This document shows, in pieces, positions 18,303-59,509 of a stretch of DNA of 64,000 nt. The translations under genes were made by a program, and so were the position numbers. How positions within the stretch are numbered: the stretch's first letter is position 1; each line of letters begins with the position of its first letter. The stretch comes from Cytophagales bacterium. GTDB lineage: Bacteria; Bacteroidota; Bacteroidia; Cytophagales; Microscillaceae. The notes below the pieces were generated by a model. The model did no database searches, was not told the DNA's origin, and saw nothing but the letters and a program-made list of their open reading frames with translations. The stretch covers positions 210,492 to 274,491 of the forward strand of contig JANPJR010000030.1 in assembly GCA_031425615.1 (NCBI GenBank), in the 5' to 3' direction.

Positions 18303-18350
18303 TAAATTAGGAATTAAAAATTAGGAATTAGGAATAAATTAAGAATTGAT
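18303..18350. repeat. heptamer-periodic repeat (AATTAGG type) upstream of ndk
   Basis: 'taaattaggaattaaaaattaggaattaggaataaattaagaattga'. Confidence 0.7.
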
Positions 18351-27061: not shown

Positions 27062-27065
27062 TTTA

Positions 27066-27097
27066 ATTAGGAATTGAGAATTAGGAATTAGGAATTA
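27066..27097. repeat. heptamer-periodic tandem repeat (AATTAGG type) abutting hppD start
   Basis: 'attaggaattgagaattaggaattaggaatta'. Confidence 0.8.
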
Positions 27098-51277: not shown

Positions 51278-52765
51278 ATGTCCAAAAAAAAACGCATAAT
51301 TTTAGAAAATATAACCGTATTGAGCCTTGTCTCAGAAGGAAAAGCCATCGCAAAACATGACGAAATGGTTATTTTTTTGGAAGGCTCACAAGTTGCACCC
51401 CAAGATATTGTTACAATTGAAATCCACAAAAAGAAAAAAACCTACGCAGAAGCACGCGTATTGGCTGTTACTACGCCTTCGCCTCTGCGTATTACGCCTG
51501 TGTGTGAGCATTTTGGCGTGTGTGGCGGTTGCAAATGGCAACATTTACCTTATTCTTTGCAATTAGAAGCAAAATACAAACAAGTAAAAGACAATTTGGA
51601 ACGCCTTGCAAAAGTTCCTTTGCCTGAAATTCCTGCTATTTTACCTTCTGAAAATACTTTTTTTTATAGGAATAAACTTGAATTTACTTTTTCTAATAAA
51701 AAATGGCTTGAAAAAGCTGATTTAGATAAAAAATTAGCAGAAAGAGCAGAAAATACCCCAGAAAAAGCACTTGAAAACCCTGAAAATACCACTGAAAACC
51801 CTACAAATGATATTGATATGTCGGATTGGGCGTTAGGTTTCCACGTTTCTGGTCGTTTTGATAAGGTTTTGGATTTGGAAAAATGTCATTTGCAAATGAA
51901 TCCTTCCAACGAAATTCGCAATGCTTTGAAAGAAAAAGCCCTGCAAGAAGGTTGGGAATTTTATGATTTGCGTGGAAAAAAAGGCTTTTTGCGTAATATT
52001 ATCATGCGTATTGCTTCTGAAACCGAAATTATGGTTGCGGTGGTTTTTGGTGAAAATAATCCAAATAAAATAACGGTTGTTATGCAGTTTTTGCACCAAA
52101 AATTCCCTCAAATATCGTCTTTGCAGTATTTTATCAATGAAAAACTCAATGACAGCGTATCTGACCTTACACCTTTTCACTATGCAGGAAAGCCTTATTT
52201 AGAGGAGAAAATGGAAGATTTGACGTTTAGGGTTGGGGCGAAGTCATTTTATCAAACCAATTCCGCACAAGCATATACACTTTATAGCGTTGCCAGAGAT
52301 TTCGCAGGGCTCACAGGCGAGGAATTTGTGTATGATTTGTACACAGGCACAGGCACAATCGCCAATTTTGTGGCAAAAAAAGCAAAAAAAGTAATTGGTA
52401 TTGAATATGTAGAAGAAGCTATACAAGATGCAAAAATAAATTCAGAAATTAACCAAATTCACAATACATTATTTTTTGCAGGTGATATGAAAAACGTTTT
52501 AACCAAAGATTTTTTGGAAAAACATGGCAAACCTGATGTTATTATTACTGACCCGCCACGTGCTGGCATGCACGAAGACGTGATAAAAGTGATATTGGAA
52601 GCCCAACCCACCAAAATCGTATATGTGAGTTGTAATCCTGCTACACAAGCGCGCGATATTGCCCTCCTCTACCCTGATTATACCGTTGCCAAAGTGCAAC
52701 CTGTAGATATGTTTCCGCAAACACACCACGTAGAAAATGTGATTTTGATGGTGAAAGCAAGTTGA
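51278..52765 (+). CDS. rlmD: 23S rRNA (uracil-C5)-methyltransferase RlmD/RumA family
   Basis: 495 aa with TRAM domain, Cys cluster 'CEHFGVCGGC', SAM MTase motifs 'DLYTGTGT','DPPRAG' and catalytic 'VSCNP'. Has an unusual ~50-aa acidic insert. Confidence 0.85.
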   Translation: MSKKKRIILENITVLSLVSEGKAIAKHDEMVIFLEGSQVAPQDIVTIEIHKKKKTYAEARVLAVTTPSPLRITPVCEHFGVCGGCKWQHLPYSLQLEAKYKQVKDNLERLAKVPLPEIPAILPSENTFFYRNKLEFTFSNKKWLEKADLDKKLAERAENTPEKALENPENTTENPTNDIDMSDWALGFHVSGRFDKVLDLEKCHLQMNPSNEIRNALKEKALQEGWEFYDLRGKKGFLRNIIMRIASETEIMVAVVFGENNPNKITVVMQFLHQKFPQISSLQYFINEKLNDSVSDLTPFHYAGKPYLEEKMEDLTFRVGAKSFYQTNSAQAYTLYSVARDFAGLTGEEFVYDLYTGTGTIANFVAKKAKKVIGIEYVEEAIQDAKINSEINQIHNTLFFAGDMKNVLTKDFLEKHGKPDVIITDPPRAGMHEDVIKVILEAQPTKIVYVSCNPATQARDIALLYPDYTVAKVQPVDMFPQTHHVENVILMVKAS

Positions 52766-52814
52766 AATATTGGTAGTAAGTGATTTTACTTGATAATAAT
52801 TTTGGGGCAACGCT

Positions 52815-52860
52815 ATTTTTTCCATAGCAAAGGTTTGCAAACCCTTTGCTATGAAAAAAT
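52815..52860. other. stable hairpin between rlmD and the minus-strand island (terminator-like, atypical T-run placement)
   Basis: 'catagcaaaggtttg/caaaccctttgctatg' ~14-bp stem. The T-run precedes rather than follows it on both strands. Confidence 0.4.
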
Positions 52861-52910
52861 ACCATAATGGTAAAATCATGTAACGACTTTTTTTAAGCGA
52901 AAAGTTTGTT

Positions 52911-54110
52911 TTATTGAATAGGAATATCAAAAATTTTTGTTAAGTCAAAATTAATATCGCTTTTTTTTGTAATGTTAAAGATTTGTTGAGGTGTATTATT
53001 TGGATAACCTAAATCACTTAAATTAAGACGTAAAAAATTACAAACTTTGTTAACATGAATTTTCAAAGATTCAAGAATTGCATTGTTGTTTGTATCATAA
53101 CTATCCGAAAAAATAGATTGAATTACCAAATTTGTGGATTTGTTTACTTTTTCTTCTTCATCTTCGTTTAGATAGGTAAAACTATGTCCTGAATGCAACC
53201 AAAAATAATTTGTAAAGATATTTCTGTCATGGATTTTCAATTTTTCTCGTATTTCCGTATACCTATTTGTGGGCTCTACGTTAATCAAATACAACTTTAT
53301 AGAAAATTTGAAATTTTCATTTTTAATTTCTTCAACAAAAAAATTGTAAATTTCAGAGGGTAAATTTGGATTTCTCGTATATTTTTCTTCATACCCAACA
53401 AAAACTACAAGTTTAAATCCCTTATCTAATTTTTCATTATGTAAAATATTTTTCAACATTGGGATAGTATTTTTTTTTATTACATATTCATAATCCTTTT
53501 TGCCTTCAAAATTTCCACCAAAAAAATAATTATCAATTATAACCATTTCGTTACAAAAATGCTTATAATCTCTTAAACTCTCCCAATCTTCAAAAGCATT
53601 ATGTTTTGGCATAATTGGGTCTATATTGAATAACATACTTTTAAACCAAAAACCAGTATGTTGAAAATCTAATAACATATTATCAACATTGATAAATAAA
53701 ATACCATGTTTTTTTGTTAAATTTTGGCATTCTTCATTTGATTTTTCCAACAAAAAAAAAGAAAATGATGTTACTTGTTTGGGTAGTGGTAAAGTTTCAT
53801 CAAAATCTCCAATCCGTTTGCCAATATCCTGAGTTATTTTTTTGGATATTTGATTCAATTCATAATTGCTTTTTTCATTTTCTTCATCAAATTTTTTTTT
53901 GTCAGATAAAATGTAAATTCTCTTTGTTCCAAATGACTGAAAAAAAGTCGCAACTTGCATTTTATGTTTTGTGTCAGCAAAATTATTTGATTGTGTTTCA
54001 CTCAATAAACTTTCAAGAATTATGTCATTTAAAGTTTCCCTGCCAAGAAGTTTTTTTAACTTTTTCAAACTTTCTATGTCAGAAAAAATAGTTATTCTGT
54101 TTTGCATCAT
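52911..54110 (-). CDS. hypothetical protein, partner of upstream AAA ATPase (candidate effector)
   Basis: 399 aa starting 9 bp after the ATPase stop on the same strand. No recognisable family. Has Asn/Lys-rich composition atypical of the housekeeping genes. Confidence 0.55.
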   Translation of the reverse strand: MMQNRITIFSDIESLKKLKKLLGRETLNDIILESLLSETQSNNFADTKHKMQVATFFQSFGTKRIYILSDKKKFDEENEKSNYELNQISKKITQDIGKRIGDFDETLPLPKQVTSFSFFLLEKSNEECQNLTKKHGILFINVDNMLLDFQHTGFWFKSMLFNIDPIMPKHNAFEDWESLRDYKHFCNEMVIIDNYFFGGNFEGKKDYEYVIKKNTIPMLKNILHNEKLDKGFKLVVFVGYEEKYTRNPNLPSEIYNFFVEEIKNENFKFSIKLYLINVEPTNRYTEIREKLKIHDRNIFTNYFWLHSGHSFTYLNEDEEEKVNKSTNLVIQSIFSDSYDTNNNAILESLKIHVNKVCNFLRLNLSDLGYPNNTPQQIFNITKKSDINFDLTKIFDIPIQ

Positions 54111-54119
54111 GTAGTATTT

Positions 54120-56033
54120 TTATAAGTTAGAAATATCAAGTGCTATACTATCCGCTTCATCAAAAAAGCCTGCTCCAAAACGATTATCTAAATATCCATC
54201 TTCTTCTATGCGTATGCGTTCTACTTGTTTGCGACCTTTTGGCACTTCGTCAGGATTATACAGATAATAAATATTGACATCTTCGGGCAAAATCTCCTCC
54301 TTAGCAACCCAATACTGCAACTTACGGATAAGGTACTCGCTATGCGTTTCTACCACAAACTGCACATTGAAAACTTTGCACGCATCTATTAGCATATCTG
54401 CCAATTTAGATTGTAGTTTTGGGTGTAGGTTGGTTTCAGGTTCTTCTATGCAGATGGTAAACCTGTTGCCTCCATCTATTGGGACTTTTACATAATTGAG
54501 ATGATTTTCTTCAAATGTACGTGTTTTTTCGTGTATATTGTATTTTGTTTTTAGTTCTTCGCCTGCATAATATATTAGGTCAGGCATTGTTGCAACTTTT
54601 AATATTAAAGGCAATACTTGTGTAATTCCATAACCCAAATCCACCAAATCTATTTTTTTGCCATTTTTTACAAGAAACACCTCACTTGCTACACCTTTAA
54701 TCTCGTTAATCTCAAAACCATCTGCAATACCAAATTCTTTTAACCAAGTATTTACGAAATCAGTATCTATTTTTTTCTTGTTTAGTAATACATCATGTAA
54801 AAATTCATTAAAAGATGTGCCTTGTGATTGATAGGTGTAAATACGCTGAGAATTGGCTCGCACTCCTTCTATAAATTGAATACCATTTTGCATATATGAT
54901 AATTCACCAAAATTTATTATTTTTGAAAAAAAATCAAAAAATGTTTTACAAGTGTTCGCAAAATCTTTATTGATAATTTGATTTAATTTCAGTTTTCCAC
55001 ATTTTTCTATAATGGATTGAAATTTAGCATAATCTCCTTGAAATAAATAACGTGCAGGGAAATATTCGCGCTCTTCTGGAAATGATAAATTTTCGTCAGA
55101 TTCCATTTCTATTCGCTTTAAAAATTCTTCTTCTGTTTCATGTATAAGATTAACAAAAACGGGGAATTTAATTGATTTATTTTTAGTAGCATATTTAGGA
55201 AAATAAGGTTCGCCAAAAAGAAAGGAAAAAGCCAGATTACTCTCCAAATTATATTGAAGAATACTTTGACGATTTTCCAGATATGGTAATGTTGTTTGAA
55301 ATGGACTATTTATTTGTTTTAAAATATTTCCCTTTAAAATTTCATAAAATTCTGATTTATGAGGATTTTCTCCTATAATTTTGTCTAATTTATCAATATC
55401 CAAAATTTCAGTATTGAAAAATTTGTCCTCAAATAATATTTTTTGTAATGATATTTGAGAATGACATTTTATTCGAGTAGCATTTTCTTGTATCTTTGAA
55501 ATACCTTTTCCTTTTTCGCTCCATGACAAAAGCACTTCATTTTTATCGTTTTTAATATTTATATTTACAATTCTATCTTTCAACCATGAAAAAGAAACTT
55601 TATACGTTTTTATCTCGCTCTCTTTACTATCTCCCAGCAAATTAGAATACAAATCGTTTTTATCCAAAAATTTAAAATCCAATGTACTACATTGCTCATA
55701 ATCATTTTCTTCAATATTATAATTTCCTCCTTGCTCCCAAGTCCATAAAACAGATATTCCAAATTCAAAACTTATTTCTTTTTTATCTTCGTTTGCTTTG
55801 TTATTAACTACATTTTCAAAATCTCCCAGATTATGATTTCCCAAAGAAAAATCAAGCCCTCCAAAAAAATTACCTTTTTTCGCATTTTCGCTTAATAAAT
55901 TCAACGCTTTAAACACACTACTTTTCCCTGAGCTATTCGCCCCTGTCAAAATGGTAATAGGTGCGAATTCAAAGGTGGTTTTTTGTTCAAAAACTCTAAA
56001 ATTTTCTAAACTAAATTGTGTAAGACGAGGCAT
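54120..56033 (-). CDS. OLD/ABC-type AAA ATPase (AAA_15/AAA_21-like) with short C-terminal tail
   Basis: 637 aa. N-terminal 'NFRVFEQKTTFEFAPITILTGANSSGKSSVFKAL' (Walker A). ~490-aa insertion, then Walker B 'TICIEEPETNLHP' and H-loop 'VVETHSEY'. ~60-aa tail resembling DUF3696-type tails. Confidence 0.8.
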   Translation of the reverse strand: MPRLTQFSLENFRVFEQKTTFEFAPITILTGANSSGKSSVFKALNLLSENAKKGNFFGGLDFSLGNHNLGDFENVVNNKANEDKKEISFEFGISVLWTWEQGGNYNIEENDYEQCSTLDFKFLDKNDLYSNLLGDSKESEIKTYKVSFSWLKDRIVNINIKNDKNEVLLSWSEKGKGISKIQENATRIKCHSQISLQKILFEDKFFNTEILDIDKLDKIIGENPHKSEFYEILKGNILKQINSPFQTTLPYLENRQSILQYNLESNLAFSFLFGEPYFPKYATKNKSIKFPVFVNLIHETEEEFLKRIEMESDENLSFPEEREYFPARYLFQGDYAKFQSIIEKCGKLKLNQIINKDFANTCKTFFDFFSKIINFGELSYMQNGIQFIEGVRANSQRIYTYQSQGTSFNEFLHDVLLNKKKIDTDFVNTWLKEFGIADGFEINEIKGVASEVFLVKNGKKIDLVDLGYGITQVLPLILKVATMPDLIYYAGEELKTKYNIHEKTRTFEENHLNYVKVPIDGGNRFTICIEEPETNLHPKLQSKLADMLIDACKVFNVQFVVETHSEYLIRKLQYWVAKEEILPEDVNIYYLYNPDEVPKGRKQVERIRIEEDGYLDNRFGAGFFDEADSIALDISNL

Positions 56034-56199
56034 ATAGGGTAATTAGGAATAGGGGAGTAAAAAAGCCACCCAGCCCACAAAGGGGAGTTTTTGGGTGGAA
56101 ATGGAAAATTATTTTATAAGGTTTATTTTTTCTCAAATATCCATAATTATTTACAGATATTCAAGTTTTTTTTGTATTTGCTCTTTGGGGCTTGGGCTT

Positions 56200-57057
56200 T
56201 TAAATCATATCATTTGCTTGTCTTTGTGGGTGAATATGTGCATTATTTTGCGTGATATAAGGCACAAGGTTTGGGTACAGCGTGTGTAATTCGGTATATT
56301 CAGGGGTATTTTCGCGGTATTCGCAGGGTTGCGATTGTACAGTATTTTTGAGGCGAATAAGCACACGCAAGGTAGCAGAGGGTAAATTTTGGGAGGTAAT
56401 AGTAGTTGCCATACCAAACAATCTTTCTACTTTCTCCCCAAAAACATCCAAATAATTACCAATATGTAGCAATATTTGGTAATGAAATTCTTTTGAGCGG
56501 TTTAGACTGTACATATTAATAGCGAGCAAACTATTGCCAAATGCTTTTGCTTCGCCATAATGTGTGTGTCCGCCTTGTCCTTCTATTTTTACATTGCCAT
56601 CAGCGTGTAATATGAATATATTTTTAAGAATACTATTTTGGGTGCTTGCCAAAAAAAACATTTCATAATGTCCAGCGATACTTTTGAATATGCCCTCGTG
56701 ATTGTGCATGATTGGGTACATTTCGCCATTTTCGTTAGGTATTCGCACATATTTTTTTGTATCATAATCATATTCATAATGATTTTTTCTTAGTTCTGTA
56801 TTGATGTGTTCCAAAAAACCGCTTACCGTTTCTTCGCTTGGTGGGTTATCATCTTTTTTCATTTTGGAAATTGTAGAAGCGTTATACTTATTGTTTGTAA
56901 GTTCTTTATTCTGTTTTTCTAATGCTTTCCAAATTTCAAGGGCTTTTCGCACTTGTGCGAGGAGGGCGTTGTGTGTTGTGGTCATGTTGAAGTTTGTTTT
57001 TAAAGATTTTTTTGCAAAATAATGTTTTTCTTCGTTTTCTCGTACAAGGCTTACCAA
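56200..57057 (-). CDS. hypothetical protein (weak metallophosphoesterase-like motifs)
   Basis: 285 aa with 'IMHNHEGIF' and 'GGHTHYGE' in the order expected for phosphoesterase motifs III/VI, but no GDxHG/GDxxDR. Assignment weak and start uncertain. Confidence 0.4.
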   Translation of the reverse strand: MVSLVRENEEKHYFAKKSLKTNFNMTTTHNALLAQVRKALEIWKALEKQNKELTNNKYNASTISKMKKDDNPPSEETVSGFLEHINTELRKNHYEYDYDTKKYVRIPNENGEMYPIMHNHEGIFKSIAGHYEMFFLASTQNSILKNIFILHADGNVKIEGQGGHTHYGEAKAFGNSLLAINMYSLNRSKEFHYQILLHIGNYLDVFGEKVERLFGMATTITSQNLPSATLRVLIRLKNTVQSQPCEYRENTPEYTELHTLYPNLVPYITQNNAHIHPQRQANDMI

Positions 57058-57085: not shown

Positions 57086-57433
57086 TTAATATCCCATTCC
57101 GTCCATCAAACTGTCAAAATCACCATCAAAGTCGTCATAATCGCCATATTGTCCATCAGTTAAGGCATTGAAAGTATCACGGTCATAATCATGATTACGA
57201 TAATTATCATCATCTTCATCAAGGTAATTACTCCATTTTTCGGTTTGTTGTGTGATACCTTCCGCAGAAATTACATTTTTTAGATGTTCAAATACTTCAT
57301 CTTCCAAGCAAAAATGGTCAAGATTGCACAAACACCAATCTATATATGAGGTGTCTATTTGTGAAACTTCTTGCAAAGATTTTCCTTCATATTTCCCAAA
57401 AGTAAATTCTGTATTTTCGTTATAAATTTTCAT
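57086..57433 (-). CDS. DUF3820-like small acidic protein (hypothetical)
   Basis: 115 aa with 'FTFGKYEGKSLQEVSQIDTSYIDWCLCN' resembling the FGKYKG...DP.Y..W family, followed by a D/Y/G-rich acidic tail. Confidence 0.45.
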   Translation of the reverse strand: MKIYNENTEFTFGKYEGKSLQEVSQIDTSYIDWCLCNLDHFCLEDEVFEHLKNVISAEGITQQTEKWSNYLDEDDDNYRNHDYDRDTFNALTDGQYGDYDDFDGDFDSLMDGMGY

Positions 57434-57748
57434 ATTTTTATGTGTTTAGTGTGTTTTAAAGATTTTTTGGTTAGTTTTCCTTTAAATTATATTGCAAAGT
57501 TCAACTTTATGTTTTGGAAATAAAAAGACAAGCAGACTTATAAATTTCTTTCCAATTTCCAAGAAATTTCCTAATTTTTTTGACACAAAAAAGCCTCCTA
57601 ACCCACAAAGGAATAAACTGCCTTTGACTGTAAAAACGAAAATACTTTTTGGTACTTAATCCATTTTATACTGATAAATGTTAATTTAGCATCAAAATAA
57701 CCGTTATTTTAGGATTTTAAAGGCATTTTAAAATTATTTTTAAAAAAA

Positions 57749-57783
57749 CTTAGGAAACTATAAACTTTTTTATAGTTTCCTAA
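57749..57783. promoter_or_regulatory. candidate TetR operator (perfect 16-bp inverted repeat) upstream of MFP-RND operon
   Basis: 'cttaggaaactataaa ctt tttatagtttcctaag' has the same arms as the tetR-proximal copy and lies ~110 bp upstream of the MFP start. Confidence 0.5.
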
Positions 57784-57853
57784 GTTTTCTTGTTATATAT
57801 TTGCAACTCAAAAAATTAGGAAAAAACCGTTTTATTTTTATTTTATTATTTTT

Positions 57854-57888
57854 CATTCCTAATTTCTAATTCTTAATCCCTAATCCCA
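57854..57888. repeat. heptamer-periodic repeat (TTCCTAA type) abutting MFP start
   Basis: 'cattcctaatttctaattcttaatccctaatccca'. Confidence 0.8.
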
Positions 57889-59152: not shown

Positions 59153-59509
59153 ATGGCAAATATTATTAATGAAAAAAGTTTTGCATTTGCAGTAAGATAT
59201 GTAAAAATGGCACAACATCTACAAGACACCAAGAAAGAATTTATCATGAGCAAACAATTACTGCGTTGTGGTACATCAGTAGGAGCAAATGTAAGAGAAG
59301 CCCAATATGGAGAAAGTAAAAAAGATTTTATTCATAAATTAGCCATTGCCCAAAAAGAATGTAATGAAAGTTTATATTGGGTAGAATTATTATATGCTAC
59401 TTCTTACTTGACCGAAAAAGAATATCAGTCTATACAAATGGATTTAGAAGAACTTTTAAAAATCCTTACAAGCATTATTGTTACTACAAAAAAAACAATT
59501 AATGATTAA
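59153..59509 (+). CDS. four-helix-bundle protein (TIGR02436 / '23S rRNA intervening-sequence protein' family)
   Basis: 118 aa with 'SFAFAVRYVKMAQ...LLRCGTSVGANVREAQYGESKKDFIHKLAIAQKECNESLYWVELL', a characteristic family signature. Inserted between the MFP and RND genes. Confidence 0.8.
   Translation: MANIINEKSFAFAVRYVKMAQHLQDTKKEFIMSKQLLRCGTSVGANVREAQYGESKKDFIHKLAIAQKECNESLYWVELLYATSYLTEKEYQSIQMDLEELLKILTSIIVTTKKTIND

Follow-up and report, generated by a model that had tools for sequence, protein, structure and literature searches.

A Menshen-related pair of ATPase and PLD-fold effector genes without NsnA, a candidate two-gene immune module in a Cytophagales genome

The described systems closest to the gene pair reported here are Menshen and HEC-03. 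Menshen, which is reported as experimentally validated, consists of NsnA (ParB-DUF262 and ParBDB domains) followed by NsnB and NsnC, and one class of its NsnC proteins joins an inactive PIN domain to a domain of the MIT_C/PB-PLD1 type (Li et al., 2025; PMC12065111). Since the 1,997 Menshen systems of the published census were collected with NsnA as the seed (PMC12065111), relatives that lack it could not have been found there. HEC-03, also validated, comprises two genes, for an ABC ATPase and a PIN protein, and needs both of them (Payne et al., 2024; bioRxiv 10.1101/2024.01.29.577857). Here we analyzed a stretch of 64,000 nucleotides (nt) from a Cytophagales bacterium (assembly GCA_031425615.1, contig JANPJR010000030.1, positions 210,492 to 274,491; hereafter the window), which carries on its minus strand the gene of an ATPase of 637 amino acids (aa) and, directly downstream, the gene of a putative 399-aa effector. 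With moderate confidence, the pair is regarded as a Menshen-related candidate immune module of two genes without the NsnA sensor, organized as an operon and with a mechanism that would include phosphodiester cleavage. By analogy to the validated systems it probably defends against phage. What is new here is the absence of NsnA and not the fold of the effector.

The ATPase matched the Pfam families AAA_15 (2.4e-20), AAA_21 (1.1e-17) and DUF3696 (1.6e-6); the last match scored 28.6 bits against a cut-off of 22, in agreement with the DUF3696-like tail of the preliminary description. The best PADLOC match was NsnB (8.3e-48), followed by PDC-M55A (9e-38) and HEC-03B (1.3e-29), while AriA, PtuA and GajA were reached at 1e-12 to 1e-17 only. 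The initial assignment to the OLD/PtuA/GajA/AriA-type ATPases thus holds for the OLD-ABC/AAA_15 defense class as a whole, but by PADLOC the protein resembles NsnB rather than GajA, PtuA or AriA. The same was true for the ATPases paired with the effector family, all 26 of which matched NsnB at ≤1e-25 and 23 of which matched PDC-M55A. A housekeeping ABC or SMC-type family, which had been named as the outcome that would speak against a defense role, was not recovered: the best matches were all defense models, the NCBIfam matches (PtuA, RecF, Rad50 and others) were confined to the Walker A region and far under their cut-offs, and those to SMC, RecF and Rad50 in general covered no more than that region. 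The closest solved structure by sequence was PtuA of retron Ec78 (1.9e-4), aligned from Walker B to the H-loop only.

Column conservation was calculated from an alignment of 120 ATPase homologues. Invariant or near-invariant positions include R397 (94%), D465-x-G467-x-G469-xx-Q472 and E530-E531-P-E533, in addition to those given in Table 1. NsnB proteins are distinguished by an Arg for the Q-loop Gln, GxG for the SGG of the signature motif and a Walker B EN for DE (PMC12065111). The window ATPase shares R397, GxG, the AAA_15 core and the DUF3696 tail with Menshen, but its Walker B motif reads EE and not the EN reported for S. silvestris NsnB. By homology and modelling it is assigned to the NsnB type and, with Walker A, Walker B (EE) and H-loop intact, is predicted to be ATP-competent. 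The stretch from Walker A to Walker B, first described as a ~490-aa insertion, is a normal ABC stretch in which only two parts are variable or inserted, namely the hypervariable residues ~81-380 and residues 481-520, an insertion missing from most homologues. The Flammeovirga ATPase could be aligned over residues 1-107 and 362-637 only, with no detectable similarity over 108-361. The ATPases of the related loci are also much longer than those of Menshen (404-807 aa against the 345 positions of the NsnB model).

The window effector itself had no match in Pfam or PADLOC at E≤1 and none in NCBIfam. A word-indexed search retrieved 13 relatives; an exhaustive profile search with the family retrieved 1,554 cluster representatives at 50% identity, of which 1,012 had E≤1e-10, mostly with lengths of 320-360 aa and end-to-end matches. 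Together with 273 ATPase homologues at E≤1e-10, these numbers indicate that both are real genes and not chance open reading frames (ORFs). Conservation was determined, and an AlphaFold2 model built, from an alignment of 144 representatives. This model had a predicted local distance difference test score (pLDDT) of 81.5 and a predicted template modelling score of 0.85; a model from the 13 close homologues (pLDDT 49) was discarded.

When the C-terminal domain was compared with the PDB by Foldseek, MITD1 ranked first (2.4e-6), followed by the single-stranded DNA exonuclease PLD3; the target TM-score was 0.46 for the top chain (2ymb_D) and 0.62-0.63 for other MITD1 chains. A shallow profile of the family matched nothing in the PDB, and a deep profile had MITD1 (4a5z, 1.8e-4) as its sole match, in an alignment that pairs IiDnYi with IEDPYI and HDRni with HDREI. 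Pfam MIT_C was matched at E≤0.01 by 36 of the 144 relatives (best 3e-11), and two proteins from the related loci (numbered L) exceeded the 25-bit cut-off of MIT_C (PF16565; 32.4 bits in L042 and 27.9 in L030). In PADLOC, 11 of the 144 matched BrxL and 5 matched NsnC, the family having no model of its own. A fold search of the viral BFVD collection gave weak matches to PLD domains only (best 1.5e-3) and no viral homologue. Across the 144 representatives H294 and R296 were conserved in 100%, D193 in 99%, N301 in 97%, N214 in 95%, T300, G308 and F311 in 92% each and D295 in 91%.

PB-PLD1 has been defined as a PLD-like fold nearest to the MIT_C domain of MITD1, with D/E after beta-2 and HDR before beta-5 (PMC12065111). 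Set against this description, the effector agrees in having a MITD1 MIT_C-like fold, a beta-2 that ends in D193 and the HDR triad preceding beta-5. By homology and modelling, its C-terminal domain is thus assigned to the PLD fold of MIT_C/PB-PLD1 type, and its N-terminal domain is predicted to be PIN-like with the catalytic acids lost. No HNH, Toprim or PD-(D/E)xK domain was found, as previously noted by eye, but the protein is not the wholly novel effector that it had seemed: it belongs to a large family with a predicted inactive-PIN plus MIT_C/PB-PLD1 architecture, one already published for a class of NsnC proteins.

The ATPase stop and the effector ATG are separated by 9 nt (54111-54119), no terminator was called between the genes, and a terminator-like palindrome follows the effector gene. 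This anatomy supports a two-gene operon, which is the best explanation of the arrangement; the tightly coupled order of ATPase and effector is that of Menshen. The effector gene converges on rlmD, and the palindrome in between is likely a bidirectional terminator.

The linkage of the two genes was conserved. Among the loci fetched via the effector, 33 of 39 effector ORFs had an NsnB-like ATPase directly upstream, and the remaining six begin ≤456 nt from a contig end, too near to test. Four more pairs (L047, L049, L050 and L051) were found starting from ATPase homologues, with partners recognized by the effector hidden Markov model at 3e-33 to 7e-88. In all 37 testable cases the ATPase therefore stands directly upstream of the effector, at a distance of -89 to +229 nt and often overlapping, so that the co-occurrence on which the preliminary description had staked its proposal was borne out. 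One ATPase from Aminicenantes had no partner. The closest relatives of the pair are in Cytophagales metagenome-assembled genomes (MAGs). Two metagenome contigs each carry two diverged pairs in tandem (L039, 3-2045 and 5558-8663; L041, 1361-4443 and 5581-8603), which suggests duplication and diversification of the module. A small ORF was observed between ATPase and effector in L002 (2211-2444, 77 aa) and in L047 (7762-7971, 69 aa); the two look unrelated by eye, and one has a weak YgxA-like_sub_bind match.

DUF262, the family of the Menshen sensor, was not matched even at E≤1 by the two genes upstream of the pair in the window (261 and 115 aa). It was absent from 20 upstream proteins of related loci, from the recurrent families of 146 neighbor proteins and from the Pfam lists of six further contexts (L047-L052). 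An NsnA-linked relative was sought as a positive control among short ATPase homologues and none was found; L051 has a PLD-type partner and L052 is cut. As NsnA was tested for and not found, the pair is not Menshen as defined. The upstream slot is often occupied by a WYL-WCX regulator instead. These regulators were the commonest neighbors (11 of the 146 proteins), usually directly upstream of the ATPase; in the more distant loci, of gut and rumen type, they account for 8 of 10 genes in that slot, and across 12 loci they are mutually homologous. The WYL family is described beside diverse defense systems (PMC9122601, PMC11662680). Other neighbors of the relatives were type I methyltransferases, PIN and HepT toxins, Schlafen-AlbA_2, YhcG nuclease, RtcR, a methyltransferase beside a protein with a FokI cleavage domain, and a D5-primase mobile element. 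PIF1/RecD-like helicases matching PDC-M16A/PDC-S68 recurred beside the pairs, some immediately downstream; they might be accessory to the module or just common among the neighbors in defense islands.

Other known systems share parts of this organization. HEC-03 likewise combines an ABC ATPase with a PIN-fold partner and no third sensor gene, and supplied the third-best model for the ATPase; its partner is, in contrast, described as a VapC-like PIN protein without a PLD domain, and the HEC-03 partner model was matched neither by the window effector (E≤1) nor by its 144 relatives (E≤0.01), so the pair is not HEC-03. The A component of the PADLOC candidate system PDC-M55 was the second-best ATPase match; the effector family matched no component of that system, for whose other genes no description was found. 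Septu (PtuAB), PARIS (AriAB), Gabija (GajAB) and OLD follow the same logic, in which an oligomer of an OLD-ABC-class ATPase holds and regulates a nuclease-type effector. They employ HNH (PtuB) or Toprim (OLD, GajA, AriB) domains, however, neither of which is matched here, which separates the pair from all four; their similarity to the ATPase is far weaker than that of NsnB, and their models do not match the DUF3696 tail. MITD1 MIT_C and the C-terminus of BrxL (BREX) share the PLD-like fold and the D...HDR signature with the effector. In the effector, this domain is joined to a predicted PIN-like one, and its gene is linked to that of an ABC ATPase. MITD1 itself is an ESCRT-III-associated protein of eukaryotes that binds membranes and is not known to be catalytic. 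No description of a pair of DUF3696 ATPase and MIT_C protein was found in the searchable literature.

A mechanism can be outlined by analogy. Dimers or tetramers of the ATPase would clamp the N-terminal domain of the effector between two DUF3696 tails and hold it inactive; the tail is the predicted docking site, on the basis of AlphaFold3 models of Menshen and the structures of Septu and PARIS (PMC12065111). Since no NsnA is present, the hypervariable insert of the ATPase is the likeliest sensor, and the infection cue would probably be read by the ATPase itself at this proposed sensor surface; Payne et al. argue likewise for the inserts of HEC ATPases (bioRxiv 10.1101/2024.01.29.577857). The cue would alter ATP binding or hydrolysis, and the effector would then be released or re-oriented. 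As each effector contributes one HxR half-site, two copies would have to pair to build the PLD-type active center, which might cleave phosphodiester bonds; the substrate would most likely be nucleic acid, and the outcome an arrest of phage replication or the death of the infected cell. In its most specific form, a Menshen-type ATPase that senses for itself through its insert, without a ParB-DUF262 sensor, and fires an "HxR" MIT_C phosphodiesterase would define a widespread immune family of Bacteroidota; this extended proposal is tentative.

A number of observations weigh against the favored reading. The pair stands alone between housekeeping genes here, outside any defense island; the defense-type neighbors named above are those of the relatives. 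No NsnA is present in the window or in any related locus examined. The window effector remains under every Pfam and PADLOC threshold, and its assignment is transitive through the family. The canonical PLD motif is HxK(x)4D(x)6G, as in Nuc, BfiI and Zucchini; the effector motif H294-x-R296(x)4N301(x)6G308 keeps this spacing, but with Arg in the place of Lys and Asn in that of Asp. In distant members the HDR triad is itself altered, to YDR in L047 (7986-9020), HSR in L049 (7536-8561) and HNR in L051 (4240-5238), so neither His nor Asp is universal, and some members may lack activity or rely on another chemistry. The MIT_C domain of MITD1 is a membrane-binding module and not an enzyme, and we know of no demonstrated catalysis for any MIT_C-type domain. 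Finally, the loci were collected with peptide patterns from close relatives, six of them come from the single genus Flammeovirga, and all named genome records are Bacteroidota; this exclusive taxonomy may be a sampling effect, because the scans used such patterns.

Part of this evidence also bears on other explanations. The kinship with MITD1, the nearest solved relative, would suit an effector that binds or hydrolyzes membrane phospholipids and kills the infected cell by membrane damage rather than by cutting nucleic acid; we consider this unlikely, as the other classes of NsnC effector are nearly all nucleases (PMC12065111) and no hydrophobic membrane segment was obvious by eye, the only way in which it was sought. 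That the pair is a decayed, non-functional remnant of a three-gene Menshen after loss of nsnA would agree with an NsnB-like ATPase and NsnC-like effector standing without NsnA, and sporadic component loss was noted by Li et al. (PMC12065111). Yet the NsnA-less arrangement is the rule, in all 37 pairs and in several orders of Bacteroidota, both ORFs are intact with conserved catalytic motifs, and DUF262 does not recur among the neighbors, which makes a remnant highly improbable. A pair without immune function is also conceivable, either as a selfish addiction module of toxin and ATPase or as a housekeeping pair of ABC/SMC type for DNA maintenance. Its position alone among housekeeping genes in the window, the one chromosomal site that it shares in the six fetched Flammeovirga loci and the searches for the effector in plasmids, phage genomes and IMG/VR contigs, none of which returned a copy, point in that direction. 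The ATPase matches described above, the patchy distribution, the atypical GC content and the relatives with defense-type and WYL neighbors do not, and a non-immune role appears distinctly unlikely.

A three-gene module, in which the 261-aa protein occupies the slot of NsnA or WYL and acts as sensor or transcriptional regulator, is a further alternative that we regard as doubtful. It draws on the closest relative, the Cytophagales MAG L005, where a 260-aa homologue, the ATPase and the effector follow in the same order (52, 57 and 33% identity to the window, respectively) although the genes further upstream differ, and on the many other loci with a regulator in the upstream slot. However, the 261-aa protein has only four relatives among 5.8 billion proteins, only two of the family are visible beside the pair, and the two genomes are close relatives whose shared ancestry could explain the synteny. 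No gene of the family fills the upstream slot in Flammeovirga or the other loci inspected, and the 261-aa gene is set apart from the ATPase by 166 nt that contain a weak hairpin and a T-run. The protein is without similarity to WYL regulators (hhalign probability 0.5%) and without a match in Pfam, PADLOC, NCBIfam or a PDB profile search. Two metagenome contigs (L006/L007) have a homologue behind an ExoX-like_C gene, the order seen in the window, and end before the ATPase position. In the lineage of the window, this orphan could be a previously unseen sensor or regulator on the same chassis.

If the two-gene module related to Menshen is taken as the working reading, it is not surprising in principle, but it brings a sizeable family missing from the 2023 PADLOC library and testable consequences for Menshen-type sensing. 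That library (v2) holds no model for the effector family, and only the ATPase would be recognized, as NsnB. The family numbers ~1,500 clusters at 50% identity, with members on Bacteroidia contigs from gut and rumen, and its addition would change the counts of defense systems in Bacteroidota. If the NsnB-NsnC pair works without NsnA, transducer and effector are separable from the proposed sensor and the contribution of NsnA becomes testable. The pair also offers a tractable bacterial system in which to ask whether MIT_C-type PLD domains, as in MITD1 and the BrxL C-terminus, catalyze; if the effector is indeed an HxR phosphodiesterase, the MIT_C fold, which human MITD1 and BREX BrxL also have, would gain its first demonstrated enzymatic activity.

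Table 1. Coordinates of the features of the window (counted from its first nucleotide) and of helicase genes in related loci (L numbers).
Feature	Position	Strand	Remarks
Effector gene	52911..54110	-	399 aa; NsnC-like
Effector N-terminal alpha/beta domain	53661..54110	-	residues ~1-150; predicted inactive PIN-like
Effector C-terminal PLD-fold domain	53091..53648	-	residues ~155-340; MIT_C/PB-PLD1-like by homology and modelling
VIIDNY	53526..53543	-	D193 at end of beta-2 of PLD domain, 99% conserved; model strand 188-193
HDRNIFTNYFWLHSG	53187..53231	-	HxR(x)4N(x)6G variant of PLD HKD motif; just before model beta-5 (296-299)
ATPase gene	54120..56033	-	637 aa; NsnB-like, AAA_15/AAA_21 core and DUF3696 tail
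Walker A GANSSGKS	55920..55943	-	residues 31-38 (translation); G31, K37, S38 99-100% conserved
Hypervariable insert	54894..55793	-	residues ~81-380; column conservation 0.03-0.32 against 0.5-0.84 in core
Signature-motif variant DLGYGITQ	54618..54641	-	GxG for SGG; G467 100%, G469 98%, Q472 89%
Walker B/D-loop TICIEEPETNLHP	54420..54458	-	residues 526-538; E530, E531, E533, H537, P538 100% conserved
H-loop ETHSEY	54333..54350	-	residues 562-567; H564 100% conserved
DUF3696 C-terminal tail	54150..54293	-	residues 581-628; Y590, G613, F619-G-x-G-F623-x-D-E626 97-100% conserved
Palindrome, T/A runs on both sides	52814..52861	.	inverted repeats I6/I10; 20-nt arms, 90% complementary, 3-nt loop
Hairpin and T-run	56059..56098	-	26 nt upstream of ATPase ATG; -13.8 kcal/mol, z = -1.0; includes one copy of the 25-nt G-rich element
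261-aa protein, no assigned family	56200..56985	-	ORF 285 aa; start at Met25 most likely, as in database copy P0134
115-aa protein, ExoX-like_C	57086..57433	-	PF20600, 6.5e-14
PIF1/RecD-like helicases	L018 5765-7096; L021 362-1693; L020 10908-12890; L027 8654-9532		
PIF1/RecD-like helicases (continued)	L039 2140-4110; L029 7106-8128; L030 11634-13688		

All the sequence features of the preliminary description were present: the two ORFs with their 9-nt spacing, the motifs that it quotes and a composition low in GC and rich in Asn and Lys. The GC content was 0.24-0.29 over positions 52750-55750 and 0.33-0.39 in the flanks; the module proteins contain 8.2-10.3% Asn and 1.0-3.5% Ala, compared with 4.3-5.5% and 7.5-8.6%, respectively, in rlmD and the RND pump. 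In its database copy the effector begins at the second Met and has 398 aa. As had been stated, the module interrupts a series of housekeeping genes: its neighbors are rlmD and genes recognized by eye as lgt, a TetR-family member and RND efflux components.

Both further genes that had been placed in this minus-strand island are present as ORFs, the one of 285 aa most likely encoding 261 aa and the one of 115 aa matching ExoX-like_C. The latter was not called in L005 and is probably a neighbor and not part of the module. An N-terminal helix-turn-helix in the 261-aa protein, guessed by eye, was backed by no tool. The hairpin in front of the ATPase gene was rejected as a terminator, being no more stable than shuffled sequence.

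On the minus strand, 56059-56083 and 57587-57611 hold the only two copies in 64 kb, with none expected, of a 25-nt G-rich element, CCTTTGTGGGYTRGGWGGCTTTTTT; the first lies 26 nt upstream of the ATPase start and the second ~155 nt upstream of the gene of the 115-aa protein. The element may serve the island as a common regulatory or terminator-like signal. The window has 12 copies of the 9-mer TTCCTAATT where 1.6 are expected, and L005 has 6 where 0.3 are expected, often in tandem clusters directly before the start codons of unrelated genes. Its sites include 18305-18334, 27065-27094, 56041-56049, 57568-57576, 57814-57822 and 57856-57864 in the window and 7787-7997 in L005. As an operator of the module it was rejected, because the same tandem motif precedes unrelated genes elsewhere in the window; it looks like a lineage-wide 5'-leader or promoter-proximal motif that is not specific to the module. 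An inverted repeat with 23-nt arms (96% complementary, 4-nt loop) lies at 57742-57791, in the intergenic region from which the 115-aa gene and the RND adaptor gene diverge. Further along the plus strand, at 59153-59509, a gene for a 118-aa "23S rRNA-intervening-sequence protein" (PF05635, 1.3e-26, with a weak bAvd-like match) is wedged between the RND adaptor and RND pump genes, an odd site for the gene of a four-helix bundle.

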